The notes beneath the pieces were generated by a model. The model had not been told where the DNA came from and did no database searches. It saw nothing but the letters and a program-made list of their open reading frames with translations. Of a stretch of 15,819 nt of DNA, positions 1 to 15,819 are shown piece by piece. The DNA lies in the IMG/VR virus record IMGVR_UViG_2737471850_000001, positions 1-15,819 of that record, one strand, 5' to 3'. Position numbers and translations under genes: made by a program. Positions within the stretch are counted from its first letter, which is position 1. Each line of letters begins with the position of its first letter. The DNA is from a virus. Taxonomy: Duplodnaviria; Heunggongvirae; Uroviricota; Caudoviricetes.

Positions 1-680
1 TTACTGAATCATCAACTCAAGATGAAGTAAATAAATTTGATACATTTGTATATATTGATGATGTGTCGTTTTCAGGAGAAAAGGCCATCAAATCGATAAG
101 TAATTTTGTTTTAAAATTTAATTTAAGAGATATTAAATTCAATGTATATTTTTTTTCATCTCATACGTTATCTGACTATAATATAAAAAGACGATTAGAA
201 TATATTTTTAAGGATAGAAACATTTTTGTACACGTGAAGAATGGTGGTATGCGTGAGGTTGAAAACCGAAAAAGTCGTTCTGCTCAATCAGGTGTTTTCT
301 GGCCAAGGAAATATAGTGTAGATACTCCCGAGAAATTCGAGGAGTGTGAGCTTTACAAAGGCGTATTCAGAGATGGATATGCCTCTTCTGATAGTTTTAG
401 AAATGAAGCCTCAAGGGATCGTTTCGAATCTATCCTTACTAAAGTCGGCTTTAATATCTTGCTGCACAGGAAAACCCCTAGTGAGGTGCTCAAACCTCTA
501 GGTTTTTCTACTTTTGACGGTTTGGGTTTTGGGGGAACAACATTTACTTATCGAAATTGCCCGAATAATGTGCCGCTGGCTTTTTGGTGGGGAGATTATG
601 AACCAACAGGTGCTCCCGCATTGGACTGCTGGTATCCACTAATGAAGCGGAATGGGTATAATGAGTGGTATGAGCTATAG
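1..680 (+). CDS. Hypothetical protein, 5'-partial (frame open to the window edge); likely co-operonic with the downstream NADAR gene
   Basis: Frame 3 is open from nt 3 to the TAG at 678-680; the ORF-track start at 63 is only the first in-window GTG, so the true start lies upstream of the window. Strongly AT-rich, unlike the neighbouring phage genes. Codons 45-83 encode FVYIDDVSFSGEK, which resembles a type I phosphoribosyltransferase PRPP-binding signature (inference only). No family recognised with confidence. Confidence 0.5.
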   Translation, partial: TESSTQDEVNKFDTFVYIDDVSFSGEKAIKSISNFVLKFNLRDIKFNVYFFSSHTLSDYNIKRRLEYIFKDRNIFVHVKNGGMREVENRKSRSAQSGVFWPRKYSVDTPEKFEECELYKGVFRDGYASSDSFRNEASRDRFESILTKVGFNILLHRKTPSEVLKPLGFSTFDGLGFGGTTFTYRNCPNNVPLAFWWGDYEPTGAPALDCWYPLMKRNGYNEWYEL

Positions 681-1281
681 ATTATATCCGCTACAGAACA
701 CAGTTTCCTTCAGGAAAACCACCGAAAAATGGGGGGGGCTTTCCAACATGGCTAAAGGATATCCATTGTTAATCAATGGGTTGCCTATTCAATCAAGTGA
801 AATCCTTTACCAAGCATGCCGATATCCAGACTATCCGGATATACAAAAGGCCATCATTACTCAAGGAAACCCCTATGAAGCCAAGCAGACCGCAAGATCG
901 TTTGAATCCAAAACTCGCGCAGGATGGGATAAGAATCGAGTTTCGATTATGAAGTGGTGTGTATGCGTAAAATTATGCCAGAACTGGGATACGTTCTTTG
1001 CGCTGTTAGACAGTACAGGCGACCATTTCATCGTGGAACACTCAGAGAAGGACCAATTCTGGGGTGCCAGTAAAGACCCAGAAGGTAACTATTATGGTAT
1101 GAACGTATTAGGGCGAATTCTCATGGACGTGAGAGGGGTTGCTAGGAAAAAGGGGGCTGATGGGTTTGCAACAATACCATCGCTATCTTTGGACAAATTT
1201 TTTCTCCTAGGCGAAAGAATTAAAGATGTAACATTTGTAGAGCCAACGCCTGGAGCAGGGCAAAGTTTATCCTTGTTTTAG
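652..1281 (+). CDS. NADAR-domain protein (YbiA-like, DUF1768/COG3236 N-glycosidase family)
   Basis: Translation aligns by eye to E. coli YbiA across the whole domain: GGLSNM vs GDFSNF; SSEILYQACRY vs TSEHYFQAQKF; PYEAKQTARS vs PMVAARMGRD; W-x3-R-x3-M; LLDSTGDHFIVEHSEKDQFWGA...GxNxLGRILMDVR vs LL-T...LVEHTENDAYWGDG...GKNRLGYLLMELR. Start is ambiguous (ATG at 652, 661 or 670); 670 fits the domain boundary and overlaps the upstream stop. Confidence 0.75.
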   Translation: MGIMSGMSYRLYPLQNTVSFRKTTEKWGGLSNMAKGYPLLINGLPIQSSEILYQACRYPDYPDIQKAIITQGNPYEAKQTARSFESKTRAGWDKNRVSIMKWCVCVKLCQNWDTFFALLDSTGDHFIVEHSEKDQFWGASKDPEGNYYGMNVLGRILMDVRGVARKKGADGFATIPSLSLDKFFLLGERIKDVTFVEPTPGAGQSLSLF

Positions 1282-1391
1282 CGTTCCATCTGGGGCATTT
1301 TCTTCCATAAATTAACTGGCGTACCTCCCTCGGCGTTTTTTTGTTGCCATAAAAGGTTTTTGATTTTCTATAATCAACCAGCCATAATCAT

Positions 1392-1420
1392 GTCACCGGA
1401 GCCTGAACAACTCCGGTGAC
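1392..1420. repeat. Perfect 10-bp inverted repeat (gtcaccggag / ctccggtgac) with a 9-nt spacer, upstream of ybcN
   Basis: Read directly: gtcaccggag cctgaacaa ctccggtgac. It lies between a TATAAT hexamer (1369-1374) and the ybcN RBS. No T-run follows, so it is more likely an operator or RNA structure than a classical terminator. Confidence 0.4.
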
Positions 1421-1541
1421 TTCTGCGCTAAACGGGGACGTTTATGCGCACATACAATCTAAACTCTCTTCTCCCGCCACAGATGCAGAAATGCACCTGC
1501 GATTTTTTGCATCCAGCGTTTGACCTCTGCGGAGGTGAAGC

Positions 1542-1997
1542 GTGAACCTCCCACAAGACGGCATCAAACTTCATCGCGGTAACTTCACCGCTATCGGTCA
1601 GCAGCTCCAGCCTTATCTGGAGGACGGCAAGTGCTTCCGCATGGTACTGAAGCCATGGCGCGATAAGCGCAGCCTGTCTCAAAATAGCTTAAGCCACATG
1701 TGGTACACCGAAATCAGCGAATACCTCATCAGCCGGGGTAAGACTTTCGCTACGCCAGAGTGGGTGAAGGATGCTCTGAAACACACTTATCTCGGTTATG
1801 AAACCAAAGAACTGGTTGATGTCGTAACCGGTGATATCACCACTATCCAGTCGTTACGCCATACCTCCGATCTTGATACCGGAGAGATGTATGTCTTCCT
1901 GTGTAAGGTTGAAGCCTGGGCGATGAATATTGGTTGCCACCTGACTATTCCGCAGCGCTGCGAGTTCCAGCTGCTGCGCGACAAGCAGGAGGCGTAA
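1542..1997 (+). CDS. ybcN: NinB-family recombination protein (YbcN-like, DNA base-flipping protein)
   Basis: 151 aa with GTG start and GGAGG RBS at 1531-1535. Matches K-12 DLP12 YbcN along its length from memory and shares the NinB core (RSLSQN...W) with lambda NinB. Stop overlaps the ninE start (TAATG). Confidence 0.88.
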
Positions 1998-2167
1998 TGG
2001 CTACACCGCTTATTCGTGTCATGAACGGACACATCTACAAAGTACCAAATCGTCGTAAGCGTAAACCTGAGCTGAAGCCATCCGAAATACCAACTCTGCT
2101 CGGATATACCGCCAGCCTGGTTGATAAAAAATGGTTGCGACTGGCAGCAAGGAGGAATCATGGCTGA
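1997..2167 (+). CDS. ninE: NinE-family protein
   Basis: 56-aa ORF from the ATG at 1997, overlapping the ybcN stop. Basic RRKRKP patch and WLR...RR C-terminus resemble lambda NinE; position in the nin cluster is conserved. The ORF-track start at 1934 is an upstream in-frame extension. Confidence 0.8.
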   Translation: MATPLIRVMNGHIYKVPNRRKRKPELKPSEIPTLLGYTASLVDKKWLRLAARRNHG

Positions 2168-2450
2168 TTTGAGAAAAGCAGCGCGTGGTCGGGAATGCCA
2201 GGTAAGAATCCCTGGCGTATGTAATGGCAATTCTGAAACGTCTGTACTGGCACATATCCGGCTGGCTGGATTGTGCGGTACCGGTATCAAACCGCCAGAC
2301 CTGATTGCCACCATTGCATGTTCTGCCTGCCACGACGAAATCGACCGCCGCACACATTTTGTCGATGCTGCATATGCAAAAGAATGCGCGCTGGAAGGTA
2401 TGGCGAGAACACAGGTTATCTGGCTGAAAGAGGGGGTTATTAAGGCGTGA
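2160..2450 (+). CDS. ybcO: YbcO-like putative nuclease (DUF1364, Cys-rich)
   Basis: 96 aa from the ATG at 2160, with AGGAGG RBS at 2150-2155. Cys-rich segment [12 protein letters not shown]...[11 protein letters not shown]. Overlaps the ninE stop by 8 nt and the rusA start by 4 nt. Matches K-12 YbcO from memory. Confidence 0.85.
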
Positions 2451-2809
2451 ATACCTACAGCATCACATTACCCTGGCCTCCGAGCAATAATCGCTATTAC
2501 CGCCATAATCGCGGGCGCACGCACATCAGCGCAGAAGGGCAGGCATACCGCGATAACGTCACCCGAATCATTAAAAACGCAATGCTGGATATCGGCCTGG
2601 CTATGCCAGTGAAAATCCGTATTGAGTGCCACATGCCGGATCGCCGTCGCCGTGACCTGGATAATCTGCAAAAAGCCGCTTTTGACGCACTCACCAAAGC
2701 AGGTTTCTGGCTGGATGATGCTCAGGTCGTTGATTACCGCGTTGTGAAGATGCCTGTTACCAAAGGTGGGAGGCTGGAACTGACCATCACCGAAATGGGG
2801 AATGAATGA
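2447..2809 (+). CDS. rusA: Holliday junction resolvase RusA
   Basis: 120 aa with GTG start overlapping the ybcO stop (GTGA). Sequence [23 protein letters not shown]... matches K-12 RusA nearly residue for residue from memory. Confidence 0.92.
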
Positions 2810-2946
2810 TGTTTGAGTTTTATATGGCAGAACTTCTTCGCCACCGCTGGGGGCATCTGCGCTTATATCGTTTCCCCGGTTCTGTTTTGACCGATTACCG
2901 AATACTGAAGAATTACGCCAAAACCCTGACAGGAGCAGGAGTATGA
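2806..2946 (+). CDS. ylcG: Small protein YlcG (46 aa)
   Basis: Hand-translated; absent from the ORF track because it is under 60 aa. ATGATG start overlaps the rusA stop; product [46 protein letters not shown]. Position matches K-12 ylcG. Confidence 0.6.
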
Positions 2947-3031
2947 AGTCAGAGATAACAATCAACTAATACTGTTTTGTTGATTTTTGCTTGTAATTGG
3001 CGTTCTGGTCTGATTTTTGTGGAGTAAGTTG

Positions 3032-3415
3032 ATGCGTGATATTCAGATGGTTCTTGAGCGTTGGGGAGCGTGGGCGGCTAATAATCATGAAGATGTGACC
3101 TGGTCGTCCATTGCCGCCGGTTTTAAGGGATTAATTACTTCAAAAGTAAAATCTCGCCCGCAATGTTGTGACGATGACGCGATGATTATTTGCGGGTGCA
3201 TGGCCCGTCTGAAAAAGAACAACAGCGATTTGCACGATTTATTAGTAGATTATTATGTAGTCGGTATGACATTCATGTCACTGGCAGGTAAGCATTGCTG
3301 CTCTGATGGTTATATCGGGAAAAGGTTACAGAAGGCTGAGGGCATAATTGAAGGGATGTTAATGGCATTAGATATCCGGTTAGAGATGGATATCGTTGTT
3401 AATAACTCTAATTAA
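3032..3415 (+). CDS. quuD: Late-gene antiterminator Q (phage 21/82-type)
   Basis: 127 aa from the ATG at 3032 with GGAG 7 nt upstream. [22 protein letters not shown]... matches K-12 QuuD from memory. The ORF-track start at 3017 (TTG) is an upstream extension. Confidence 0.9.
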
Positions 3416-3448
3416 TATGCCAATTGTTTACTAAAAATTATTAAAAAT

Positions 3449-3466
3449 GGGGCGTTGCAACGCCCC
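3449..3466. repeat. Perfect 18-bp GC-rich palindrome GGGGCGTTGCAACGCCCC downstream of Q
   Basis: Read directly; it is its own reverse complement. Lies in the expected late promoter / qut / early-transcribed region, flanked by AT-rich sequence. Confidence 0.6.
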
Positions 3467-3532
3467 CAAAAATAAAGGGTAATATATAACAGAAGGTTTA
3501 TATAGTTAGAAGCAAGGTTGTGCTCCTAAAGG

Positions 3533-3595
3533 AAGTGGCTTGAGGGAGCCACTTATATGTTGGGGAGGCAAAGCCTCCCGCAACATATCTTTTAG
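3533..3595 (+). terminator. Tandem hairpins ending in a short T-run; candidate tR'-like late terminator, shared as 3' terminator of the convergent porin gene
   Basis: Hairpin A: aagtggct / tgaggg / agccactt (3533-3554). Hairpin B: atatgttggggaggc / aaa / gcctcccgcaacatat (3555-3588) followed by cttttag. Lies between the Q stop and the minus-strand porin stop at 3604. Confidence 0.5.
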
Positions 3596-3603
3596 TAATC
3601 AAA

Positions 3604-4686
3604 TTAGAACTGGTAAACCATACCTACAGCAACGATATCATCGGTAGCAACGCCAGATGCTTTCGTGAAATCGCTCTTATCAATCAGGTTGATTTTGTAA
3701 TCAACAAAAGTGGACATATTTTTGTTGAAGTAATAGGTTGCACCTACATCAATATATTCAACCAGGTCCTGATCACCCCACGCACCCAAGTCTTTTCCTT
3801 TAGATTGCAGGTAAGCAACGGACGGACGCAGACCGAAGTCGAACTGATATTGTGCAACTACTTCGAAGTTTTGTGCTTTGTTGGCAATATGGTTATTACC
3901 AAAAACAGTCATGTTCTGGGTTTCAGAATAGGTGGTAGCCAGATAGATGTTGTTCGCATCATATTTCAGACCAGCTGCCCATACTTCAGCATTTTGACCA
4001 GATGCATTCAGGCTGTTGTTACCGTAGATAACCTGATTATTAGTGCGGTCAGATTTAGCATAGGTTGCACCTACACCGAATCCTTCATACTCATAAGTAG
4101 TGGAGAAACCGAAACCATCACCATTAGCTTCAGTTACGTCAGTGCGGTCATTTTTACCCTGATACTGAGCAGCAAAGTTCAGACCATCAACCAGACCAAA
4201 GAAGTCGTTGTTACGATAAGTTGCAACACCAGTGGTGCGACCAGTCATGAACACATCTGTTTGGGTCCAGGTATCGCCACCGAATTCTGGCAGAACGTCA
4301 GTCCACGCACCGATGTCATATGCTACACCGTAGTTACGGCTGTAATCGATTGAGCCGTAGTCCCCGAATTTCAGGCCTGCAAATGCAAGACGGGTTTTGT
4401 CTTTGGAGGAGCCTTGAGATTCAGCGCGGTTGCCTTTGAATTCATATTCCCACTGACCGAAACCAGTCAGTTGATCGTTGATTTGGGTTTCACCTTTGAA
4501 GCCAAGACGGGCATAAGTAGTATCACCATCATCTGCATCATTAGAGGAGAAGTAGTGCTTGGCATTAACTTTCCCATATAGATCCAGCTTGTTACTGTCT
4601 TTATTATAAATTTCAGCTGCCTGAGCAGACATCGCCATCAGTACTGATGCAGCTACAGCAGAAATTGCCACTGTTAATTTTTTCAT
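3604..4686 (-). CDS. nmpC: Outer-membrane general porin, NmpC/OmpD/Lc family (phage moron)
   Basis: Start at [23 protein letters not shown] (signal peptide, ATG at 4684-4686); the ORF track extends to 4746. Ends in the porin-typical ...VGMVYQF. Same minus-strand position between Q and the lysis genes as DLP12 nmpC, but uninterrupted in this window. Confidence 0.88.
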
Positions 4687-5273
4687 CGTGAGCCCTTTTT
4701 TTGAACTATTATTAAAAAATGATGTCACTGCGCGATAAATATTCATCTAATCAATGTGATTATTTCAAGATGTAAGTTTTAGTTTCTCATTTAATTTGTG
4801 AAGTAGATCTCTATTTTTATCTGAACTTTTTCTATCGAAACCTATTTGTGGCTCTTATTTGAACAAAAATAAACCTATTAGCTAATTTATATTAATGGTT
4901 GTTATTTATGGAGGTTCTATAATTCGGCAGTTTAATTTAAATCAACTAAAAATAACGTCTGAAATTATTTATTGGTTATTTGTTGAGGTTTTCTTATGTA
5001 TTTGTGGTGGTGTTTTGAACACTCGGTAGCATTCTCATAAATATCATTCAGTGGTTTACGTACGTAAAAAATTGGTTATGCTGTTAAGAGTGGTTACTTC
5101 GTCACACAGCTTAAACCCGCCGTCGAGCTGGTTTTTCCATTTTCTGAGTCTCGATATTAGCTGATAACTCAATACCTGAGTTATTCACTGACTCCGAGTC
5201 TGTTACGTTTCTGCTTTTTTGCGATACGTTGTATTCCCTCAATTTACACCCGCTTTGTCTGCGAGGTGGGGTT

Positions 5274-5489
5274 ATGAAATCCATGGATAAGTTAACAACG
5301 GGTGTCGCCTATGGCACCTCAGCAGGTAGTGCCGGTTACTGGTTTTTACAGCTGCTCGATAAAGTCACGCCCTCACAGTGGGCAGCAATAGGTGTGCTGG
5401 GTAGCCTGGTATTTGGCCTGCTGACGTACCTGACAAACCTTTATTTCAAGATTAAAGAAGATAAGCGCAAGGCTGCGAGAGGTGAATAA
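5274..5489 (+). CDS. essD: Pinholin (phage 21 S21-like class II holin) with dual-start motif
   Basis: 71 aa from MKSMDK (M1/M4 dual start). [18 protein letters not shown]...[22 protein letters not shown] gives two TMDs and a charged C-terminus, matching K-12 EssD / S21 from memory. Stop overlaps the rrrD start (TAATG). Confidence 0.88.
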
Positions 5490-5986
5490 TGCCTCCATCA
5501 TTACGAAAAGCCGTTGCTGCTGCTATTGGTGGCGGAGCAATTGCTATAGCATCAGTGTTAATCACTGGCCCAAGTGGTAACGATGGTCTGGAAGGTGTCA
5601 GCTACATACCATACAAAGATATTGTTGGTGTATGGACTGTATGTCACGGGCATACAGGAAAAGACATCATGCTCGGTAAAACGTATACCAAAGCAGAATG
5701 CAAAGCCCTCCTGAATAAAGACCTTGCCACGGTCGCCAGACAAATTAACCCGTACATAAAAGTTGATATACCGGAAACAACGCGCGGCGCTCTTTACTCG
5801 TTCGTTTACAACGTGGGCGCTGGCAATTTCAGAACATCGACGCTTCTTCGCAAAATAAACCAGGGCGATATCAAAGGCGCATGTGATCAGCTACGTCGCT
5901 GGACATATGCTGGCGGTAAGCAATGGAAAGGTCTCATGACTCGTCGTGAGATTGAGCGTGAAATCTGTTTGTGGGGTCAGCAATGA
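5489..5986 (+). CDS. rrrD: SAR endolysin (signal-anchor-release lysozyme, R21-like)
   Basis: 165 aa with an N-terminal weakly hydrophobic Gly/Ala-rich SAR segment ([18 protein letters not shown]), then a T4-lysozyme-like catalytic region ([12 protein letters not shown]...T). Matches K-12 RrrD from memory. Confidence 0.9.
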
Positions 5987-6444
5987 ACAGAGTAACCGCG
6001 ATTATCTCCGCTCTGGTTATCTGCATCATCGTCTGCCTGTCATGGGCTGTTAATCATTACCGTGATAACGCCATTACCTACAAAGCCCAGCGCGACAAAA
6101 ATGCCAGAGAACTGAAGCTGGCGAACGCGGCAATTACTGACATGCAGATGCGCCAGCGTGATGTTGCTGCACTGGATGAAAAATACACGAAGGAGTTAGC
6201 TAATGCGAAAGCTGAAAATGATGCTCTGCGTGATGATGTTGCCGCTGGTCGTCGTCGGTTGCACATCAAAGCAGTCTGTCAGTCAGTGCGTGAAGCCACC
6301 ACCGCCTCCGGCGTGGATAATGCAGCCTCCCCCCGACTGGCAGACACCGCTGAACGGGATTATTTCACCCTCAGAGAGAGGCTGATCACTATGCAAAAAC
6401 AACTGGAAGGAACCCAGAAGTATATTAATGAGCAGTGCAGATAG
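5983..6444 (+). CDS. rzpD: i-spanin (Rz-like)
   Basis: Start at MNRV (ATG 5983, overlapping the rrrD stop). N-terminal [16 protein letters not shown] followed by a coiled-coil-like charged region. Position immediately after the endolysin. Confidence 0.85.
6203..6385 (+). CDS. rzoD: o-spanin lipoprotein (Rz1-like), nested in the +1 frame of rzpD
   Basis: 60 aa; signal peptide with lipobox VVGC; proline-rich [16 protein letters not shown]. Entirely embedded in rzpD in a different frame, the canonical Rz/Rz1 arrangement. Confidence 0.85.
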
Positions 6445-6468
6445 AGTTGCCCATATCGATGGGCAACT
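6445..6468. terminator. Hairpin between convergent rzpD and borD (possible bidirectional terminator)
   Basis: agttgccca / tatcga / tgggcaact: 9-bp perfect stem, 6-nt loop, starting right after the rzpD stop and ending 8 nt before the borD stop on the other strand. Confidence 0.5.
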
Positions 6469-6475
6469 CATGCAA

Positions 6476-6769
6476 TTATTGTGAGCAATACACACGCGCT
6501 TCCAGCGGAGTATAAATGCCTAAAGTAATAAAACCGAGCAATCCATTTACGAATGTTTGCTGGGTTTCTGTTTTAACAACATTTTCTGCGCCGCCACAAA
6601 TTTTGGCTGCATCGACAGTTTTCTTCTGCCCAATTCCAGAAACGAAGAAATGATGGGTGATGGTTTCCTTTGGTGCTACTGCTGCCGGTTTGTTTTGAAC
6701 AGTAAACGTCTGTTGAGCACATCCTGTAATAAGCAGGGCCAGCGCAGTAGCGAGTAGCATTTTTTTCAT
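6476..6769 (-). CDS. borD: Bor lipoprotein (lambda Bor family, serum-resistance associated)
   Basis: 97 aa; signal peptide with lipobox LITGC; sequence matches lambda Bor / K-12 BorD from memory. Minus strand, as in lambda. Confidence 0.9.
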   Translation of the reverse strand: MKKMLLATALALLITGCAQQTFTVQNKPAAVAPKETITHHFFVSGIGQKKTVDAAKICGGAENVVKTETQQTFVNGLLGFITLGIYTPLEARVYCSQ

Positions 6770-7059
6770 GGTGTTATTCCCGATGCTTTTTGAAGTTCGC
6801 AGAATCGTATGTGTAGAAAATTAAACAAACCCTAAACAATGAGTTGAAATTTCATATTGTTAATATTTATTAATGTATGTCAGGTGCGATGAATCGTCAT
6901 TGTATTCCCGGATTAACTATGTCCACAGCCCTGACGGGGAACTTCTCTGCGGGAGTGTCCGGGAATAATTAAAAACGATGCACACAGGGTTTAGCGCGTA
7001 CACGTATTGCATTATGCCAACGCCCCGGTGCTGACACGGAAGAAACCGGACGTTATGAT

Positions 7060-7512
7060 TTAGCGTGGAAAGATTTGTGTAGTGTTCTGAATGCTCTCAG
7101 TAAATAGTAATGAATTATCAAAGGTATAGTAATATCTTTTATGTTCATGGATATTTGTAACCCATCGGAAAACTCCTGCTTTAGCAAGATTTTCCCTGTA
7201 TTGCTGAAATGTGATTTCTCTTGATTTCAACCTATCATAGGACGTTTCTATAAGATGCGTGTTTCTTGAGAATTTAACATTTACAACCTTTTTAAGTCCT
7301 TTTATTAACACGGTGTTATCGTTTTCTAACACGATGTGAATATTATCTGTGGCTAGATAGTAAATATAATGTGAGACGTTGTGACGTTTTAGTTCAGAAT
7401 AAAACAATTCACAGTTTAAATCTTTTCGCACTTGATCGAATATTTCTTTAAAAATGGCAACCTGAGCCATTGGTAAAACCTTCCATGTGATACGAGGGCG
7501 CGTAGTTTGCAT
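7060..7512 (-). CDS. ybcV: YbcV-like protein (DUF1398 family)
   Basis: ORF with the same stop runs up to a GTG at 7593 (177 aa). The internal ATG at 7510-7512 ([17 protein letters not shown]..., 150 aa) is my preferred start by recalled homologue length; neither start has a strong SD. Position between bor and ybcW as in DLP12. Confidence 0.7.
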
Positions 7513-7755
7513 TATCGTTTTTATCGTTTCAATCTGGTCTGACCTCTTTGTGTTTTGTTGATGATTTATGTCAAATATTAGGAATGTTTTCACTTAATAG
7601 TATTGGTTGCGTAACAAAGTGCGGTCCTGCTGGCATTCTGGAGGGAAATACAACCGACAGATGTATGTAAGGCCAACGTGCTCAAATCTTCATACAGAAA
7701 GATTTGAAGTAATATTTTAACCGCTAGATGAAGAGCAAGCGCATGGAGCGACAAA

Positions 7756-7962
7756 ATGAATAAAGAACAATCTGCTGATGATCCCTCCGTGGATCTGATT
7801 CGTGTAAAAAATATGCTTAATAGCACCATTTCTATGAGTTACCCTGATGTTGTAATTGCATGTATAGAACATAAGGTGTCTCTGGAAGCATTCAGAGCAA
7901 TTGAGGCAGCGTTGGTGAAGCACGATAATAATATGAAGGATTATTCCCTGGTGGTTGACTGA
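7756..7962 (+). CDS. ybcW: YbcW-like small protein
   Basis: 68 aa, [21 protein letters not shown]...; matches K-12 YbcW in length and position from memory. Confidence 0.75.
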
Positions 7963-8126
7963 TCACCATAACTGCTAATCATTCAAACTATTTAGCCTGT
8001 GACAGAGCCAACACGCAGTCTGTCACTGTCAGGAAAGTGGTAAAACTGCAACTCAATTACTGCAATGCCCTCGTAATTAAGTGAATTTACAATATCGTCC
8101 TGTTCGGAGGGAAGAACGCGGGATGT

Positions 8127-8321
8127 TCATTCTTCATCACTTTTAATTGATGTATATGCTCTCTTTTCTGACGTTAGTCTCCGACGGCAGGCTTCAATGA
8201 CCCAGGCTGAGAAATTCCCGGACCCTTTTTGCTCAAGAGCGATGTTAATTTGTTCAATCATTTGGTTAGGAAAGCGGATGTTGCGGGTTGTTGTTCTGCG
8301 GGTTCTGTTCTTCGTTGACAT
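8127..8321 (-). CDS. ylcI: YlcI-like small protein (DUF3950)
   Basis: 64 aa, MSTKNRTRRTTTRNIRFPNQMIEQINIALEQKG...; basic N-terminus; minus strand just upstream of cos, as in DLP12. Confidence 0.75.
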   Translation of the reverse strand: MSTKNRTRRTTTRNIRFPNQMIEQINIALEQKGSGNFSAWVIEACRRRLTSEKRAYTSIKSDEE

Positions 8322-8489
8322 GAGGTTGCCCCGTATTCAGTGTCGCTGATTTGTATTGTCTGAAGTTGTTTTTACGTTAAGTTGATGCAGATCAATTAAT
8401 ACGATACCTGCGTCATAATTGATTATTTGACGTGGTTTGATGGCGTAGATGCACGTTGTGACATGTAGATGATAATTATTATCATTTTG

Positions 8490-8700
8490 CGGGTCCTTTC
8501 CGGCGATCCGACAGGTTACGGGGCGGCGACCTCGCGGGTTTTCGCTATTTATGAAAATTTTCCGGTTTAAGGCGTTTCCGTTCTTCTTCGTCGTAACTTA
8601 ATGTTTTTATTTAAAATACCCCCTGAAAAGAAAGGAAACGACAGGTGCTGAAAACGAACTTTTGGGCCTTTGTCGTTTCCTTTCTCTGTTTTTGGCCGTG
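8490..8700 (+). other. Lambda-type cos site (cosQ-cosN-cosB); cohesive-end sequence GGGCGGCGACCT at 8521-8532
   Basis: 8499-8640 is almost identical to the lambda genome termini as I recall them: ...tccgacaggttacg | gggcggcgacctcgcgggttttcgctatttatgaaaattttccggtttaaggcgtttccgttcttcttcgtc...; it is followed by a Nu1 homologue starting at 8710. Confidence 0.85.
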
Positions 8701-8709
8701 GAATGAACA

Positions 8710-9231
8710 ATGGAAGTCAACAAAAAGCAGCTGGCTGACATTTTCGGTGCGAGTATCCGTACCATTCAGAACTGGCAGGAACAGGGAATGCCCGTTCTGC
8801 GAGGCGGTGGCAAGGGTAATGAGGTGCTTTATGACTCTGCCGCCGTTATAAAATGGTATGCCGAAAGGGATGCTGAAATTGAGAACGAAAAGCTGCGCCG
8901 GGAGGTTGAAGAACTGCGGCAGTCCAGCGAGGCAGATCTCCAGCCAGGGACTATTGAGTACGAACGCCATCGACTTACGCGTGCGCAGGCCGACGCACAG
9001 GAACTGAAGAATGCCAGAGACTCCGCTGAAGTGGTGGAAACCGCATTCTGTACTTTCGTGTTGTCGCGGATCGCAGGTGAAATTGCCAGTATTCTCGACG
9101 GGATCCCCCTGTCGGTGCAGCGGCGTTTTCCGGAACTGGAAAACCGACATGTTGATTTCCTGAAACGGGATATCATCAAAGCCATGAACAAAGCAGCCGC
9201 GCTGGATGAACTGATAAGGGACGCTTCCTGA
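8710..9231 (+). CDS. nohD: Terminase small subunit Nu1, C-terminally altered (about 169 lambda-like residues, then a divergent IRDAS tail)
   Basis: [54 protein letters not shown]... is near-identical to lambda Nu1 from memory up to ...AALDELI, after which lambda continues PGLLSEYIEQSG but this ORF ends RDAS. No terminase large-subunit gene follows. Confidence 0.88.
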
Positions 9232-9278
9232 ACAACATTAACGCGGTCAGTAAAACAGACTTTGCTGATAAGCGTGGT

Positions 9279-11084
9279 ATGCGTTATGTGCGGGTTAACG
9301 CTCCTGCAGGTGCAACATCTGGAAAATATTACCCTGTTGTTGTTATGCGTTCTGCTGGCTCAGTAAGCGAACTGGCATCAAGGGTCATTATCACCACGGC
9401 AACGCGAACCGCAGGCGATCCGATGAATAACTGCGAGTTTAACGGATTTGTTATGCCTGGTGGCTGGACTGACAGGGGGCGTTATGCTTATGGAATGTTC
9501 TGGCAATATCAAAACAATGAACGAGCCATCCACTCAATAATGATGAGTAATAAGGGCGATGATTTGCGCTCTGTGTTCTATGTTGATGGCGCTGCTTTCC
9601 CTGTTTTTGCGTTTATCGAAGATGGCCTGTCAATATCCGCACCTGGTGCTGATCTCGTTGTTAATGATACGACCTATAAGTTTGGGGCAACAAATCCGGC
9701 GACTGAATGTATCGCGGCGGACGTTATCCTTGATTTTAAGAGTGGGCGTGGTTTTTATGAGTCTCATTCGTTAATCGTTAACGATAACTTGTCGTGCAAA
9801 AAACTTTTTGCCACAGACGAAATTGTAGCGCGTGGTGGTAATCAGATTCGAATGATAGGTGGGGAGTATGGTGCATTATGGCGTAATGATGGCGCTAAAA
9901 CTTACCTGCTGCTTACCAATCAAGGTGATGTTTATGGTGGCTGGAATACATTAAGACCGTTTGCTATTGATAACGCAACCGGCGAACTGATTATTGGAAC
10001 CAAACTGTCCGCAAGTCTGAATGGTAATGCATTAACAGCAACAAAGCTGCAAACGCCAAGACTGGTTTCTGGTGTTGAGTTTGATGGTTCCAAAGATATT
10101 ACTTTAACCGCCGCGCATGTGGCTGCTTTTGCCAGAAGGGCAACGGATACATATGCCGATGCGGATGGGGGCGTTCCATGGAATGCCGAATCAGGCGCTT
10201 ACAATGTCACCCGCTCTGGCGACAGCTATATTCTGGTTAACTTCTATACCGGAGTCGGAAGTTGCCGGACCCTGCAGATGAAGGCACATTACAGAAATGG
10301 AGGTCTGTTCTACCGTTCCTCAAGAGATGGCTATGGTTTTGAGGAAGACTGGGCAGAAGTTTATACCTCGAAAAATCTTCCACCAGAAAGCTACCCAGTC
10401 GGCGCACCAATCCCGTGGCCATCAGATACCGTTCCGTCTGGTTATGCCCTGATGCAGGGGCAGACTTTTGACAAATCTGCATACCCGAAACTTGCAGCCG
10501 CTTATCCGTCAGGCGTGATCCCTGATATGCGTGGCTGGACGATTAAGGGCAAACCTGCCAGTGGTCGCGCCGTATTGTCTCAGGAACAGGACGGCATTAA
10601 ATCGCACACCCACAGCGCCAGCGCATCCAGTACGGATTTGGGGACGAAAACCACATCGTCGTTTGATTACGGAACCAAATCCACGAATAACACCGGGGCG
10701 CATACCCATAGTATTAGCGGGACCGCAAATAGTGCCGGCGCGCACCAACACAAGAGTTCCGGTGCATTTGGTGGCACGAACACGAGCATTTTCCCTAATG
10801 GTTATACCGCGATTTCAAATCCAAGCGCGGGGATTATGAGCACAACAAGCGGTAGTGGCCAGACTCGTAATGCAGGGAAGACATCATCAGATGGTGCTCA
10901 TACCCACTCGCTGTCCGGCACTGCTGCAAGCGCAGGCGCACATGCACATACTGTCGGTATTGGTGCTCATACGCACTCCGTTGCGATTGGCTCACATGGA
11001 CACACCATCACCGTTAACGCTGCGGGTAACGCGGAAAACACCGTCAAAAACATCGCATTTAACTATATTGTGAGGCTTGCATAA
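9279..11084 (+). CDS. Phage side tail fibre protein, probably a 5'-truncated remnant, with His-rich C-terminal repeats
   Basis: 601-aa ORF ending ...[11 protein letters not shown], as lambda Stf-family fibres do. Repeated G-A-H-T/A-H-S/T motifs in the C-terminal third. Its frame is open upstream to 9219, directly abutting the Nu1 divergence point, so the ATG at 9279 may not be the original start. Confidence 0.8.
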
Positions 11085-11668
11085 TGGCATTCAGAATGAG
11101 TGAACAAGCACGGACCATAAAAATTTATAATCTGCTGGCCGGAACTAATGAATTTATTGGTGAAGGTGACGCATATATTCCGCCTCATACAGGTCTGCCA
11201 GCAAACAGTACCGATATTGCACCACCAGATATTCCGGCAGGCTTCGTGGCTGTTTTCAACAGTGATGAGGCATCGTGGCATCTCGTTGAAGACCATCGGG
11301 GTAAAACGGTTTATGACGTGGCTTCCGGCGACGCGTTATTTATTTCTGAACTCGGTCCGTTACCGGAAAATGTTACCTGGTTATCCCCGGAAGGGGAGTT
11401 TCAGAAGTGGAACGGCACAGCCTGGGTGAAGGATACGGAAGCAGAAAAACTGTTCCGGATCCGGGAGGCGGAAGAAACAAAAAACAGCCTGATGCAGGTA
11501 GCCAGTGAGCATATTGCGCCGCTTCAGGATGCTGCAGATCTGGAAATCGCAACGGAGGAAGAAACCTCGTTGCTTGAAGCCTGGAAGAAGTATCGGGTGT
11601 TGCTGAATCGTGTTGATACATCAACTGCACCTGATATTGAGTGGCCCGCAATCCCTGTTATGGAATAA
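11084..11668 (+). CDS. tfa: Tail fibre assembly protein Tfa
   Basis: 194 aa, the same length as lambda Tfa; start overlaps the tail-fibre stop (TAATG); acidic C-terminal half typical of the Tfa family. Confidence 0.85.
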
Positions 11669-11683
11669 TAGTTTTGTGATATG

Positions 11684-11717
11684 CCGCAGAAACGTTATAT
11701 GCAATAACGTGCTGCGG
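11684..11717 (+). terminator. Interrupted hairpin just after the tfa stop (candidate terminator)
   Basis: ccgcag-aa-acgttat-atgca-ataacgt-g-ctgcgg: 13 paired positions in two stem segments. No strong T-run follows, so it is weak as an intrinsic terminator. Confidence 0.3.
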
Positions 11718-12001
11718 TTGGCTGATGTACTTTCGAGAGTGTATTGAATAATTTCCAACCGTCATTAATTTTATTTATTTTTTGTATGAGAGGATTTGAA
11801 CCTCCGAGCCTCGACACCTTATGACAAAGCGATATTGCCTTGATGACCGCCATGTGCCAAAATAACCAATTGATAAATAAGTTGATTTTAATTGGTTGGA
11901 AGCAAGTCAGGTCAAATTCAGCATTCCGCTCTCTGTATCGGATAGTTAAATTTTTCTATAACTGATAGTAATATGTTAAAACTCACACAGATAAATTATC
12001 A

Positions 12002-13984
12002 TTGCTCAACAAGTATAATGGAGTTCCCGTGGATACAGCAGAACATGATGGCAAGTTTGCTTGGGCTAGTTTTTATGAGGCTTTTGCCAACGCGTTACTG
12101 ACTTGGCGAAATCGTAGAGATGAATTAGTCAAAGGTATTCATCTAATTGCCTCGGGTGTGGAAGGAATGTCCCATCTGCAGGACAAATCTATTATGGGAG
12201 AGATCTTTCCCTTAAAAGACATTTGTCCGTTTACTACTATGGGCTTGTTCAATCGTAACTTGACCGACAGCAATCGCAAAATTATTGCTGCCAAGCTAGC
12301 GAATTTGTTGGGCGTGAACGAACCGATTCCTGACTCCTTTGCCGGAATCCCTCTGTTGAATAACCAAAAATCTTGGTTCTTTGGTTATGAAAAGTCACGC
12401 GACCCTAATGACATTGAATGCTTGTGGGAAATGTTCTCACAGGCAATGACCTTTGCGGATAACCAGAATACTAACTCTGCAGACTTCACTGCCGCATATG
12501 ACATCGCTTCTACAGTAATGAATGTCGGTTGGAATCTCACCATGGGGTTGTACTGGACCCGTCCTTGGTTCTACCCCACTTTAGATAGCCAGTCGCAGTA
12601 TTACATTCAGACAGTGTTAAACATTAAGATCATTAAAAACGGGGCAAAAGGTCGCTGTAGTGGACAAAGTTACCTGAGTCTTATGCGGGCGCTGAACGAG
12701 GTCTTTACCCAACCAAACTATCCGGTTCATTCTTTCCCAGAACTTTCCTTATCAGCGTGGAATACAGATCTTAGCCAGTCTAAAGATGAGGTGGCAAATA
12801 GAACGTGGAAAGCCTCTTTACTGAATAAAATTAAGGCGTTATGCCTGAAAAAAAATGGCCCTTATTTCACTGCTTCGGAGTTGGAAGAAAACTACTTGGA
12901 CGTTTTCAAGGTAGAGCATCCTGAGAGCAAAACTGTTACAAGCTCAATCTACTTTTATCTACAGAAACTATGCAATGATGATGAGTTAAAGTCCCTCGAG
13001 TCCGGAAATTATGAATACCTGAATTTTGAGAAAAACGAATCCCAGACGATAACTGAGGAAACTGTCGAAGAGAGTGCGCTGTCGCCAAAACTCACCCACG
13101 TTCCTTATGACATCAGTCATCTGGTGCAGGATGGCTGTTTCTTGGAAGAGGCTAAGATCCAACTCACACTTCAGCGCCTGATCGACAAGAAAAACCTGAT
13201 ATTACAAGGACCACCCGGAACTGGAAAAACTTGGTTAGCGCGACGTCTGGCGTACTGCTTGATGGGAGAAAAAGCACCTGAGCGTATTAGCGCGGTGCAA
13301 TTTCACCCGAACCTCTCTTACGAAGACTTTATTCGCGGCTGGCGTCCAGGTAAAGAAGGGCAATTGACGCTAATTGATGGACCTTTTGTAAATGCAATCA
13401 AAACTGCAGTCAATAATCCTACCTCGAAATATGTGGTGATAATTGAAGAGATTAATCGTGGCAATCCGGCGCAAATCTTCGGTGAAACACTCACGTTGAT
13501 GGAAGCAGATAAACGCACGCCGACTGAGGCATTATCTCTTTCCTATCCTAAAAATGCTGATGAAAAAATATACATTCCTGAGAATCTATATATCATCGGT
13601 ACGATGAATATTGCAGACCGCTCACTCGCACTACTTGACCTAGCGCTGCGCCGTCGTTTCGCGTTTATCGATCTAAAGCCAGCTTTTAATGACGCGTGGA
13701 GAAACTGGGTAAATTATAATTACGCAATTGATTTTGACATGTTAGCATTCATCAAATCTCGACTGACGGTATTAAACGATATGCTGGCAAAAGATGTTAC
13801 CTTAGGACCACAGTTTTGTATCGGTCACAGCTATGTCACCCCAGCTATCGGCCAAAAAATCAACGATGCCCAGGCTTGGTATGAACAAGTCGTTGATACA
13901 GAGATCTGCCCTTTGCTCGCCGAATATTGGTTCGATGCTCCAAATAAAGTCGATGAAGCCAGAAAAGTGTTATTAGCAAAATGA
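12002..13984 (+). CDS. mcrB: McrB-family GTPase (AAA+) subunit of a type IV (modification-dependent) restriction system, with an unusually long uncharacterised N-terminal region
   Basis: C-terminal ~265 aa align by eye to EcoK McrB: LILQGPPGTGKTWLARRLAY (Walker A), FHPNLSYEDFIRGWRP (McrB signature), VVIIEEINRGNP (Walker B), IIGTMNIADRSL, RRRFAFIDL, FCIGHSY, ICPLLAEYWFD. About 390 aa precede the GTPase (EcoK McrB has about 160). Start is uncertain: TTG at 12002 without an SD, or GTG at 12029 with GGAG 5 nt upstream. Confidence 0.85.
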   Translation: MLNKYNGVPVDTAEHDGKFAWASFYEAFANALLTWRNRRDELVKGIHLIASGVEGMSHLQDKSIMGEIFPLKDICPFTTMGLFNRNLTDSNRKIIAAKLANLLGVNEPIPDSFAGIPLLNNQKSWFFGYEKSRDPNDIECLWEMFSQAMTFADNQNTNSADFTAAYDIASTVMNVGWNLTMGLYWTRPWFYPTLDSQSQYYIQTVLNIKIIKNGAKGRCSGQSYLSLMRALNEVFTQPNYPVHSFPELSLSAWNTDLSQSKDEVANRTWKASLLNKIKALCLKKNGPYFTASELEENYLDVFKVEHPESKTVTSSIYFYLQKLCNDDELKSLESGNYEYLNFEKNESQTITEETVEESALSPKLTHVPYDISHLVQDGCFLEEAKIQLTLQRLIDKKNLILQGPPGTGKTWLARRLAYCLMGEKAPERISAVQFHPNLSYEDFIRGWRPGKEGQLTLIDGPFVNAIKTAVNNPTSKYVVIIEEINRGNPAQIFGETLTLMEADKRTPTEALSLSYPKNADEKIYIPENLYIIGTMNIADRSLALLDLALRRRFAFIDLKPAFNDAWRNWVNYNYAIDFDMLAFIKSRLTVLNDMLAKDVTLGPQFCIGHSYVTPAIGQKINDAQAWYEQVVDTEICPLLAEYWFDAPNKVDEARKVLLAK

Positions 13985-15102
13985 CGACAATAACCGGGAG
14001 TGAGCAACATACAGCATCACGTATTCCCATGCGAAATATCTGGATGCTGATGCTGTACGCTTCAGATCTGTTTCGCCAGTTAGGGCGCAATCAGATCGCA
14101 GTAGAAGATAACCCAGCAGAAATCCCCGACCTGGTGGCGACAATCCTCCTTCATGAGATTACGCTGCGCCGACGTCGCAATTTAAATATGGGATACCAAA
14201 CTTGTCATGCGGCCCTGAACCGGGTGAGAGGGCGCATTGACATACTGTATACTGCCAGTCATCAACTGCTGGAACGGGGACAGGTTGCCTGCCATTTTCA
14301 AGACATAACCCTCAACACCCCCCGAAATCGCTATGTTCGCTGTGCGTTAGAACGTCTGGCCTCAATCATAGTGAAACCGTCTTTGGCGGCAGATTGCCAT
14401 TTTATGGCAATATCACTTCGCCGTGAGGGGATAAATGGAGGATATCCTGCCCCCCACGAATTACCCTCAGTGTGGCGTTTTGGACGCCATGATGCCGCAG
14501 ATAAACCGATGGTCGATGCCGCACGATTAGCTTTTGAACTGCTGATGCCGACCGAAGATCAAGGCCAATATCTTTTACCTGCGCCCTCAAATAACCTTTA
14601 CTGGATGAGAAGACTATTTGAAAAAGGTATCGCTGGCTTATATCGTGTACACCTTGACAAAACAACTTGGCAGGTCTCTGCAGGGAAAGAGCTGAAATGG
14701 GCGTTGAGCGATCAAAGTGCAGGTAGTGCAGAGATTTTCCCGACAATGAAGTCAGACATTATTCTGGAACACAAGACTGCCCAGCGGCGTATTATTATCG
14801 ATACCAAATTTAATTCGATTCTGACAAAGGGTTGGCATCGGGAGCAATCACTACGTAATGGCTATATTTATCAGCTATATACCTACCTTAGAACACAGGA
14901 GAACAAGACGGATCCGCTTTCGCTCAATGCCGCTGGTCTTCTACTTCATCCAGCTGTTGGCTATATGCTTAATGAGTATGTTGTCACTCAGGGACATAAG
15001 ATCCATTTTGCTACAGTAGATATGACGGTAGATGCTAAAGCAATTAAAAAACAATTGCTGGCAATAGCCCATGATTGTGCAGGAGTCGCGGTTGATGACT
15101 AA
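13981..15102 (+). CDS. mcrC: McrC-family nuclease subunit (PD-(D/E)xK) partner of the McrB-like GTPase
   Basis: Start ATG overlaps the mcrB stop (ATGA). N-terminal IPMRNIWMLMLYA matches EcoK McrC IPVRNIYYMLTYA; C-terminal FPTMKSDIILEHKTAQRRIIIDTKFNSIL...GYIYQLYTYL...GLLLHPAV matches the EcoK LPRMETDITIRSSEKILIVDAKYYKSIF...NLYQLMNYL...GLLIYPHV nuclease core. Confidence 0.85.
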   Translation: MTTITGSEQHTASRIPMRNIWMLMLYASDLFRQLGRNQIAVEDNPAEIPDLVATILLHEITLRRRRNLNMGYQTCHAALNRVRGRIDILYTASHQLLERGQVACHFQDITLNTPRNRYVRCALERLASIIVKPSLAADCHFMAISLRREGINGGYPAPHELPSVWRFGRHDAADKPMVDAARLAFELLMPTEDQGQYLLPAPSNNLYWMRRLFEKGIAGLYRVHLDKTTWQVSAGKELKWALSDQSAGSAEIFPTMKSDIILEHKTAQRRIIIDTKFNSILTKGWHREQSLRNGYIYQLYTYLRTQENKTDPLSLNAAGLLLHPAVGYMLNEYVVTQGHKIHFATVDMTVDAKAIKKQLLAIAHDCAGVAVDD

Positions 15103-15819
15103 CCATCCTATAGGGCACTGGCTGTAATATAATCAATAGTTTCAATTAAGTAGCTGTTATCCGTGCTTAGTCATCATATGACGCACCACGGTCTAATTTT
15201 CCTGCTCATACATTGATATATCCTTGTCGTGCCCGGAAAGTCGCAGTCCACTATGAGGTATACCGATTGCCAGCACCAAAAGCTTCTTTGTGATTATTAT
15301 ATCGGGGAATGCCTATTTTTTTAGTGACAATATCAGATAGCAATTAATAAGCGGTGCCGGTAATGGATGTTATGTTTAATGTATAGACACAGCCATCATA
15401 AACTAAACGTCTGTTGTTCGCTCATAACCGACATTTATCTCAGTTATGGAGGATAATTATGTATGCAGATAATGGGGCAGACAGTCGTGGAGTAAACAAG
15501 GTTTTGCACTGCTTGGCGGCATCGTTATCTTATTTTTAATTATGTGCCTCTTAACATAAGTTGGGACAAAACAGAGACACATAAGGTCTCACAAAGGTCT
15601 GCAAGGCCTCACATGTATTGAGATGTTAATAAAATGTAGACTTGTAATTTGGATATAAATGGTAGAGAAAACCTTTCCCCAAAATAAAAACGAACGTCAA
15701 TGAAATCAAACGGTTGAATAAAGTTAATTTTGGCTAATAAAAAGACAATAAAATAATTTTTATCATTAAATATCAATGACTTGAATTCATGGTTTTTATA
15801 TACTGCTGCGCCATATGGG

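Follow-up and report, generated by a model that had tools for sequence, protein, structure and literature searches.

A phosphoribosyltransferase–NADAR gene pair upstream of ninB in a defective lambdoid prophage is almost certainly the anti-phage system DS-32 and may comprise a writer and its eraser

The DNA analysed here (the window) is the 15,819-nucleotide stretch at positions 1 to 15,819 of the IMG/VR virus record IMGVR_UViG_2737471850_000001, and its first 1281 nucleotides (nt) carry two co-oriented, overlapping open reading frames (ORFs) on the + strand that almost certainly encode the two proteins of the anti-phage system DS-32, here DS-32A and DS-32B. A reading made from the sequence alone (the sequence-only reading) had described an overlapping gene pair at this place upstream of ninB, and the ORF reading of the window agrees with it. 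The first ORF is open at the window edge, frame 3 running through codons 3-677 (225 amino acids, aa) to a TAG at 678-680; the second spans 652-1281, the ATG at 670 (MSYRLYP...) being favoured as its start by RefSeq and by homologues. The features of the pair are as follows.

1..680, + strand: part of the DS-32A gene, its 3' two-thirds, encoding residues 119-343 of 343; the stop codon is at 678-680 and the 5' 354 nt fall outside the window
670..1281, + strand: DS-32B gene, encoding a YbiA-type NADAR protein of 203 aa; ATGs in the same frame also occur at 652 and 661
670..680, + strand: overlap of the two genes, 11 nt (29 nt with a start at the 652 ATG)

The 11-nt overlap suggests that translation of DS-32A and DS-32B is coupled. 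The AT-rich, atypical composition remarked on in the sequence-only reading was also found, the GC content being 35.5% in gene A (32.3% over the first 765 nt of the gene) and 43.6% in gene B compared with 51-52% in the flanking replication and nin genes; over the first 300 nt of the window it is 27.7%.

There can be very little doubt that this pair is DS-32, a two-gene anti-phage system which has already been published and experimentally validated. DS-32 comes from the DefensePredictor study (DeWeirdt et al., bioRxiv 10.1101/2025.01.08.631726; Science 2026, PMC13092281), where Table S6 gives it under the working id 'NADR' as WP_000097610.1 plus WP_032260665.1 from ECOR assembly GCF_003333945.1, with defensive = TRUE, and Table S8 prints both protein sequences. 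The DS-32A fragment encoded by the window is identical to the cloned protein WP_000097610.1 at 225 of 225 residues, and DS-32B matches the cloned WP_032260665.1 at 202 of 203, the sole difference being E191 in the window and K191 in the clone. The published clone is likewise from E. coli and has the same gene order and the same overlap, with the window holding the last 225 codons of A. The full upstream gene, which the sequence-only reading had sought, was recovered from 19 complete E. coli genomes that hold window bases 1-1500 at ≥99.7% identity; in these it encodes a protein of 343 aa, WP_000097610.1, to residues 119-343 of which the window fragment is identical. Full-length DS-32A, taken from a genome 99.9% identical to window bases 1-1500, scored 312.7 bits against NCBIfam NF053875 'DS32_1_antiphage' (cut-off 250), and DS-32B scored 257.5 bits against NF053876 'DS32_2_antiphage' (cut-off 240). 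The phosphoribosyltransferase (PRTase) gene lies upstream of the NADAR gene, adjacent and on the same strand, which is the DS-32 arrangement, and the RefSeq names of the products are 'phosphoribosyltransferase-like anti-phage protein' and 'NADAR family anti-phage protein'.

The idea that the slot carries a defence module was therefore well founded, as the pair is DS-32 and the near-identical clone from an ECOR strain scored as defensive (PMC13092281). The whole 'Systems' sheet of Table S7 in that study contains five rows for DS-32, with small plaques recorded in all of them and the following values for efficiency of plating (EOP).

DS-32 against Bas26: -log EOP 3.7
DS-32 against RB69: -log EOP 1.6
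DS-32 against SECphi18: -log EOP 0.88
DS-32 against T5: -log EOP 0.62
DS-32 against Bas67: -log EOP 0

Bas26 is a T5-like phage of the Markadamsvirinae (PMC8594841). The system is thus already published and curated rather than new, and its mechanism is unpublished: the DefensePredictor preprint offers none, and no DS-32 mutants were found in the text of PMC13092281 or in those parts of its tables that were consulted. The preprint does note that DS-32B is like the DarG1 NADAR and that DS-32A is unrelated to DarT, with possible 'TA partner swapping' between toxin–antitoxin (TA) systems. In the literature, no papers were found on 'PRTase-CE' by name, and those combining a NADAR with a PRTase were the DefensePredictor papers only, plus two Aravind-lab surveys without the pair.

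The sequence-only reading had held that the upstream protein could be assigned neither to DarT nor to any other family. We rejected DarT on the basis of the PRTase fold and family and the lack of an ADP-ribosyltransferase signal, and the protein is assignable, even from the fragment. DS-32A matches Pfam PRTase-CE (PF24390, E=6e-39, above the gathering score), has a type I PRTase fold and belongs to the retron-effector clade. PADLOC 2023 returned weak matches only, to the retron type III-A PRTase effector (7.5e-11) and to PDC-M42C, and the HHblits annotation of DS-32A in Table S8 also points to the retron III-A PRTase effector (PMC13092281); a sequence search of the PDB with the DS-32A profile gave no relative. 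Two motifs stand out in the protein, of which the first would bind 5-phosphoribosyl pyrophosphate (PRPP).

45..77, + strand: PRPP-binding loop FVYIDDVSFSG, residues 133-143 of DS-32A, identified by conservation in 26 homologues
525..575, + strand: C-terminal motif GFGGTTFTYRNCPNNVP, residues 293-309 of DS-32A, with the PNNxP signature of retron type III-A effectors

Among these 26 homologues, which reach down to 28% identity, Y135, D137, D138 and F141 of the PRPP loop are invariant and S142 nearly so; G293, F294, G295, R302, N303, C304, P305, N306, N307 and P309 are invariant in the GFGGTTFTYRNCPNNVP block, as are N206, R256, E260 and the PLGF at 283-286 elsewhere. The PRPP loop is intact, with a hydrophobic strand, two acidic residues (D137 and D138) and a turn of small residues. 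Retron PRTase effectors carry the motif Gx14PNNxP, the PRPP motif of Retron-Eco11 is needed for defence, and activation of Retron-Eco11 lowers PRPP by ~50% (PMC12746101). The corresponding conserved glycine of DS-32A, G291, lies 13 residues before PNN, compared with 14 in the retron motif. From the fold, these motifs and the drop in PRPP observed for the retron-Eco11 homologue, we infer that DS-32A carries out a PRPP-dependent transfer. Conservation along the protein is uneven. Mean pairwise identity is 65% over residues 256-343, whereas the PRTase core, the loop at 216-255 and the helical domain at the N-terminus reach 33-39%. Another E. coli allele (L021), found in the same prophage slot, follows the same pattern, with 42-46% identity to DS-32A over residues 1-255, 71% over the C-terminus and 85% for its NADAR.

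The second gene had been taken for a YbiA-like NADAR, an assignment that was confirmed: DS-32B matches Pfam NADAR (PF08719, 82.5 bits against a cut-off of 35.1) and the E. coli YbiA structure 2b3w (E=2e-11), and its model, with a mean predicted local distance difference test score (pLDDT) of 92.8, has as its best Foldseek matches 2b3w and 8bau, a Phytophthora NADAR–ADP-ribose complex. It comes near to the riboflavin N-glycosidase model TIGR02464, at 70.6 bits against a cut-off of 73.7. The catalytic features were located as follows.

799-801, + strand: catalytic glutamate E44 of DS-32B, invariant in 27 subfamily members
1030..1065, + strand: NADAR catalytic motif IVEHSEKDQFWG, residues 121-132 of DS-32B, aligned to YbiA

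Besides E44, the residues Y47, Q48, R51, W86, K101, E123, D128, W131 and G132 are invariant in the 27 subfamily members, and catalytic roles of the equivalent NADAR residues have been described (PMC11125620, PMC12945103, PMC11257639). NADAR types are distinguished by one catalysis-essential residue: the YbiA family has Glu at this position, the DarT1-linked BC4488 family has Asp, and the NADARs of phages have His (PMC11125620, PMC12945103). Residue-for-residue alignment places the acidic residues of IVEHSEKDQFWG at the same positions as in the YbiA motif VEHTENDAYWG, and DS-32B is therefore of the YbiA (Glu) type and not of the DarT1-linked BC4488 (Asp) type. By the same alignment DS-32B is a YbiA-type NADAR with catalytically competent residues. 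A C-terminal extension of ~35 residues (157-192; F177 invariant), well predicted in the model, is specific to the DS-32B subfamily. YbiA-type NADARs split the N-glycosidic bonds of 5-phosphoribosylamino riboflavin intermediates or pyrimidines (TIGR02464 description) and also strip ADP-ribose from guanine and cytosine in DNA (PMC11125620, PMC12945103). The housekeeping NADAR gene of E. coli K-12, ybiA, is reported to lie in a LexA-controlled cluster with dinG and ybiB, and YbiB is a TrpD2-type PRTase-like nucleic-acid binder; this would be a second, independent association of a NADAR with a PRTase fold, linked to DNA damage (PMC11125620).

A genome scan restricted to one genome per species gave 18 loci, in Enterobacter, Citrobacter, Serratia, Rahnella, Psychromonas, Pseudoalteromonas, Vibrio, Nitrincola, Marinobacter, Thalassotalea, Oxalobacteraceae, Neisseria, a Bacteroidales metagenome-assembled genome (MAG), Sulfurovum and Bryobacteraceae. 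At all 18, from Enterobacterales to Campylobacterota, Bacteroidota and Acidobacteriota, a NADAR of the DS-32B subfamily lies directly 3' of the PRTase on the same strand, with a junction of -29 to +5 nt at every measured locus but one (+65 nt). A PRTase-CE gene also precedes the NADAR homologues of 45-55% identity, even where the PRTase is too diverged for a word search, and the same order is seen in Klebsiella, in Smithellaceae and in metagenomic examples; a profile search placed DS-32A-like proteins in at least 276 clusters. Among 5426 complete E. coli genomes, 62 have a DS-32-like locus (19 with this allele), in all cases chromosomal and in 62 of 62 with both genes. DS-32A was found in none of 50,697 phage genomes, and so the module is so far known from prophages and chromosomes, with a further 7 records in a plasmid collection. 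Judged from this distribution, the PRTase and NADAR genes form an obligate unit that is co-inherited and probably co-translated.

The synteny also bears on whether there is a functional unit at all, since DS-32B could instead be a solitary riboflavin damage-control or anti-DarT enzyme beside an unrelated prophage gene, the former being a possibility that the sequence-only reading had itself raised. The closeness of DS-32B to TIGR02464 would fit this, as would the more distant NADARs of the same clade, which lack a PRTase and occur in phage contexts and in clusters resembling integrative and conjugative elements. The invariant, overlapping synteny across phyla and the constant presence of both genes together in E. 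coli run contrary to it, as do the defence given by the two-gene clone and the curated equivalog models for both proteins; with synteny and the published phenotype effectively refuting it, we consider this explanation hardly tenable.

Within the pair, at every locus, the NADAR is much better conserved than its PRTase (87 vs 49, 83 vs 50, 66 vs 42 and ~46 vs ~32% identity). In Enterobacter mori LMG 25706 (L003:6001-9671) two DS-32A paralogues stand in tandem: an intact orphan PRTase that shares 76% identity with DS-32A and has no NADAR of its own comes first, and it is followed by MT-A70-like remnants and then by a complete pair (PRTase 50%, NADAR 83%). The orphan lies 1 kb 5' of this second, complete pair and ~2 kb 5' of that pair's NADAR. 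If DS-32B is the eraser of what DS-32A writes, as proposed below, it seems to act on a product and not on one partner protein, because conservation is so much higher in the NADAR than in the PRTase and because the orphan E. mori PRTase is found near a second pair.

PRTases join ribose-5-phosphate, taken from PRPP, to a nitrogen nucleophile through a C1'-N glycosidic bond. The two proteins of DS-32 are chemically complementary, since YbiA-type NADARs hydrolyse the type of bond that PRTases form, and we tentatively propose that they are a writer and an eraser, comparable to DarT and its NADAR but with PRPP as the donor and nucleobases in DNA as the probable target. On this proposal DS-32A would take PRPP and link ribose-5-phosphate by an N-glycosidic bond to a nucleobase nitrogen, most probably in DNA, which would both block replication and drain PRPP. 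The co-translated DS-32B would hydrolyse exactly such bonds, so that adducts would be removed as long as the cell is uninfected. During infection a phage cue may be sensed by the N-terminal and core parts of DS-32A, which evolve fast, or alternatively the eraser may be outrun on rapidly replicating phage DNA; adducts would then pile up, with a collapse in phage yield, small plaques and a lower EOP. This scheme would account for the invariant catalytic sites in both proteins and for a conserved eraser beside a diversifying writer, as well as for the fusions, the phage genes and the difference between RB69 and T4 that are described below.

The closest parallel is DarT1–NADAR (DarTG1), in which two genes likewise form an operon, the gene for the modifying enzyme preceding that for the NADAR hydrolase, and N-glycosidic ribosyl adducts are removed from guanine in DNA by the NADAR. 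RB69 is restricted by both systems, and just as orphan NADARs of phages serve as a counter-measure to DarTG1, orphan DS-32B-like NADARs also occur in phages. The differences are that the partner in DS-32 has a PRPP-type PRTase fold and is not an NAD+-dependent ADP-ribosyltransferase, that DS-32B is of the YbiA (Glu) type whereas the DarTG1 NADAR is of the BC4488 (Asp) type, and that toxin–antitoxin behaviour of DS-32 is only putative. In the YarT–YbiA system of myxobacteria a Glu-type, YbiA-family NADAR is the enzymatic antitoxin of a neighbouring non-DarT transferase, although YarT is an ADP-ribosyltransferase and the NADAR is upstream, in the reverse order (PMC11125620).

The pair's NADAR has been fused to DNA-binding modules three independent times (HsdS, DUF1156 methylase and HhH). 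An operon hsdM - PRTase-CE - NADAR::HsdS - hsdR is present in the Smithellaceae MAG JBASVH010000153.1 (L032:1707-9047) and in the JGI metagenome 3300029255 (L033), where the NADAR::HsdS protein has 703 aa with two target-recognition domains and all gene ends in the operon overlap; this fusion is probably why several short NADAR homologues bear the JGI name 'type I restriction enzyme S subunit'. In a Bryobacteraceae MAG (L020:7026-9806) the reading frame of the NADAR continues into that of a DUF1156 DNA methyltransferase, with PRTase-CE directly 5'. In a Tara metagenome contig (L035:134-1084) a NADAR carries an HhH_3 DNA-binding domain, and the 133 nt 5' of it encode the end of a PRTase-CE protein (...TYRNCPNNCPL...WYPLLQRKPYQ*). 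It is because the NADAR is fused to HsdS, to a DUF1156 methylase and to HhH_3 that we favour DNA as the substrate.

Full-length orphan NADARs of the DS-32B kind, 42-46% identical, are encoded by Dolichospermum phage Dfl-JY45 (L037:2983-3621) and by the 485-kb uncultured phage LR745208.1 (L038:~2950-3588). Both keep the catalytic motifs and the C-terminal extension, and no PRTase-CE gene was found within 3 kb of either. Their genes are candidates for counter-defence against DS-32 (or DarT). DarTG1 is countered by the phage orphan NADAR AdfN, and RB69 is the one T-even phage in which AdfN (gp30.3) is truncated and inactive, which makes it uniquely sensitive to DarTG1 (PMC11257639). RB69 is restricted by DS-32, and T4, with an intact AdfN and on the same panel, has no DS-32 row in Table S7 (PMC13092281). 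A logic of counter-defence is suggested by the parallel of these phage orphans with AdfN and DarTG1, together with the contrast between RB69 and T4. The synteny of PRTase followed by NADAR, the uneven conservation, the three NADAR fusions, the phage orphans and the RB69/T4 contrast are the observations new to this analysis.

A number of points weigh against this proposal. To our knowledge, the acceptor is known for no defence PRTase, be it of retron III-A, ShosT, PsyrT, Ophion or DS-32. The HsdS and DUF1156 fusions could reflect the guarding of restriction–modification (R-M) complexes and not a DNA substrate; the HsdS fusion is only supporting in this respect, because a guard arrangement like that of PrrC–EcoprrI, an example of R-M complex guarding, would explain it too. 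The DUF1156 fusion comes from a single MAG contig, and an assembly error is possible. Phage NADARs may simply be aimed at DarT-type ADP-ribosylation, and RB69 and T4 differ in many other ways, the missing row in Table S7 being an indirect sign of no effect. Toxicity of DS-32A and its rescue by DS-32B are putative, and the Retron-Eco11 PRTase alone was not toxic (PMC12746101). ShosT bound PRPP but none of the purines tested. Finally, because continuous writing and erasing would itself burn PRPP, the balance of writer and eraser needs extra regulation. ShosTA and PsyrTA also have a PRPP-binding PRTase as the toxic effector of a two-gene defence system, but ShosT is a pyrophosphatase–PRTase fusion resembling adenine phosphoribosyltransferase, the antitoxin ShosA is a DprA-like DNA-repair protein and not a glycohydrolase, and at the Pfam level neither ShosT nor ShosA shares a family with DS-32.

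The burning of PRPP is central to another possibility, that both enzymes are effectors in a futile cycle. DS-32A would condense PRPP with an abundant base or amine and DS-32B would hydrolyse the product to base and ribose-5-phosphate (R5P), giving PRPP + H2O -> R5P + pyrophosphate with a catalytic acceptor, and once triggered such a cycle would empty PRPP much faster than a stoichiometric acceptor allows. The complementarity of the two activities fits well with this, as do strict co-translation from overlapping genes, the conservation of both active sites and the loss of PRPP with the related retron effector. The cycle must nevertheless be silent before infection, and a regulatory domain is not evident except for the variable N-terminal helical domain of DS-32A. 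It also leaves the DNA-binding fusions and the lone phage NADARs unexplained, as a phage NADAR would help and not counter such a system, and we judge it decidedly unlikely.

Another explanation starts from the type III-A retrons, in particular Retron-Eco11, whose effector is homologous to DS-32A along the entire length of DS-32A, including the helical domain at the N-terminus, the PRTase core with its PRPP loop, and PNNxP. DS-32 has a NADAR in place of the reverse transcriptase (RT) and multicopy single-stranded DNA (msDNA), the spacing from Gly to PNN is 13 and not 14, and DS-32A ends 34 residues past the motif, without the winged helix-turn-helix domain and C-terminal tail of the retron effector. 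Neither an RT nor an msr/msd adjoins DS-32: no RT was annotated within 10 kb in four genomes, no retron RNA family was found in the window, and the neighbours in other taxa were NADARs and not RTs. The PRTase could thus be the sole effector, acting by metabolite depletion as in retron-Eco11, with the NADAR as a regulator or sensor that replaces RT-msDNA. DS-32B would keep DS-32A inactive by binding its conserved C-terminus or by processing a small ribosyl ligand, and DS-32A, released on infection, would consume PRPP and starve phage nucleotide synthesis. We regard this as possible, though rather less probable than the writer and eraser. DS-32A is a truncated homologue of effectors whose activation cuts PRPP by about half, the host ranges of the two systems overlap (T-even-like and T5-like phages), the most conserved parts are the PRTase C-terminus and the NADAR, as for an interaction interface, and 'TA partner swapping' was suggested in the DefensePredictor preprint. 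Set against this, the catalytic residues of the NADAR are all invariant in the subfamily, which a pure binding partner does not need, the NADAR DNA-binding fusions and the phage orphan copies are left unexplained, and a 50% fall in PRPP is a modest basis for a mechanism. The remainder of the probability is assigned to mechanisms other than those described here.

The writer and eraser proposal can be carried further, to a new modification of nucleic acid, in which a retron-type PRTase would use PRPP for the N-(5-phosphoribosyl)ation of bases in DNA, with the NADAR as a dedicated eraser that is tethered to DNA-recognition machinery in some lineages, and with phages answering by means of orphan erasers. 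We consider this strong form unlikely, but if it were true the retron type III-A effectors would share that chemistry. What stays of value is the mechanism, and the acceptor of defence-associated PRTases. DS-32 is the simplest defence PRTase to study, having two small enzymes and no RNA component, and the chemistry of the partner, hydrolysis of ribosyl N-glycosidic bonds, points to the kind of DS-32A product to look for.

With regard to the genomic setting, this cargo module, DS-32, is virtually certain to belong to a defective lambdoid prophage resembling DLP12/e14, with the replication genes on one side of it and ybcN/ninB on the other. In the 19 genomes that share the window allele the order is replication genes O and P, an MT-A70 methylase pseudogene and then WP_000097610.1. 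The next gene downstream, ybcN (1542-1997), is at the NinB position, its score against Pfam NinB (20.7 bits) falling just below the cut-off of 23.8. The junction with the lambdoid backbone is as follows.

1282..1357, + strand: region 3' of the cargo module, reaching as far as the conserved lambdoid backbone, with a weak terminator-like hairpin at 1283-1296

The hairpin (L001:13283-13296) is a consensus match only. A scan for promoters and terminators around the module found promoter-like sites to be no more numerous than in shuffled sequence, and TTGAAA-16-TATTTT, 30 nt 5' of the start codon, is a candidate promoter only. The query was matched by 2824 E. coli records; among the matches listed, those without DS-32 (20 phage records, from sequenced lambdoid phages) begin at about 1358 (1358/1359). 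Together with the small share of complete E. coli genomes that have a DS-32-like pair, this agrees with the earlier view of the slot upstream of ninB as variable. Two further elements lie in the conserved lambdoid backbone, where similarity runs from 1358: a 33-codon ORF (WP_072160280.1, 1444-1545, + strand) at the 'orf33' position of phage 82, which overlaps the start of ybcN, and, just 5' of it, a perfect 9-bp inverted repeat (tcaccggag...ctccggtga, 1391-1417).

The prophage is defective, with DS-32 kept in a decayed element, because it lacks genes for the large terminase, portal, head and tail. Window 8710-11668 (+ strand) instead has a Nu1-like small terminase gene (8710-9231), a tail-fibre gene that begins almost at once after it (9279-11084) and then a gene for tail-fibre assembly (11084-11668). 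Rfam IS009 (RF02111) matches at 220.9 bits at 11427-11625 (+ strand), wholly within the tail-fibre assembly gene; the family is probably built on conserved prophage coding sequence and is not an independent RNA. A gene for a 380-aa OmpC/NmpC-type porin (3604-4746, - strand) lies between the antiterminator gene quuD (3017-3415) and the lysis genes, the usual DLP12 arrangement. At the distal end of the remnant is an McrBC-like restriction pair (12002-15102, + strand), consisting of a 660-aa AAA_5 GTPase/ATPase (12002-13984) and a 373-aa McrC-family protein (13981-15102), which in related genomes is followed by an icd pseudogene fragment. In other E. coli strains, prophages of the same type vary at a second slot as well, which lies between kil and the cI-like repressor (L001:5837-7438; L021:1019-2592) and is occupied in one strain by a SIR2-family gene and in another by DUF3037 and HipA-like kinase genes (WP_000210934.1, WP_000389051.1), a pair that is DS-6 of the DefensePredictor study. 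As this slot also holds defence cargo, there are at least two defence hot spots in DLP12-like prophages.

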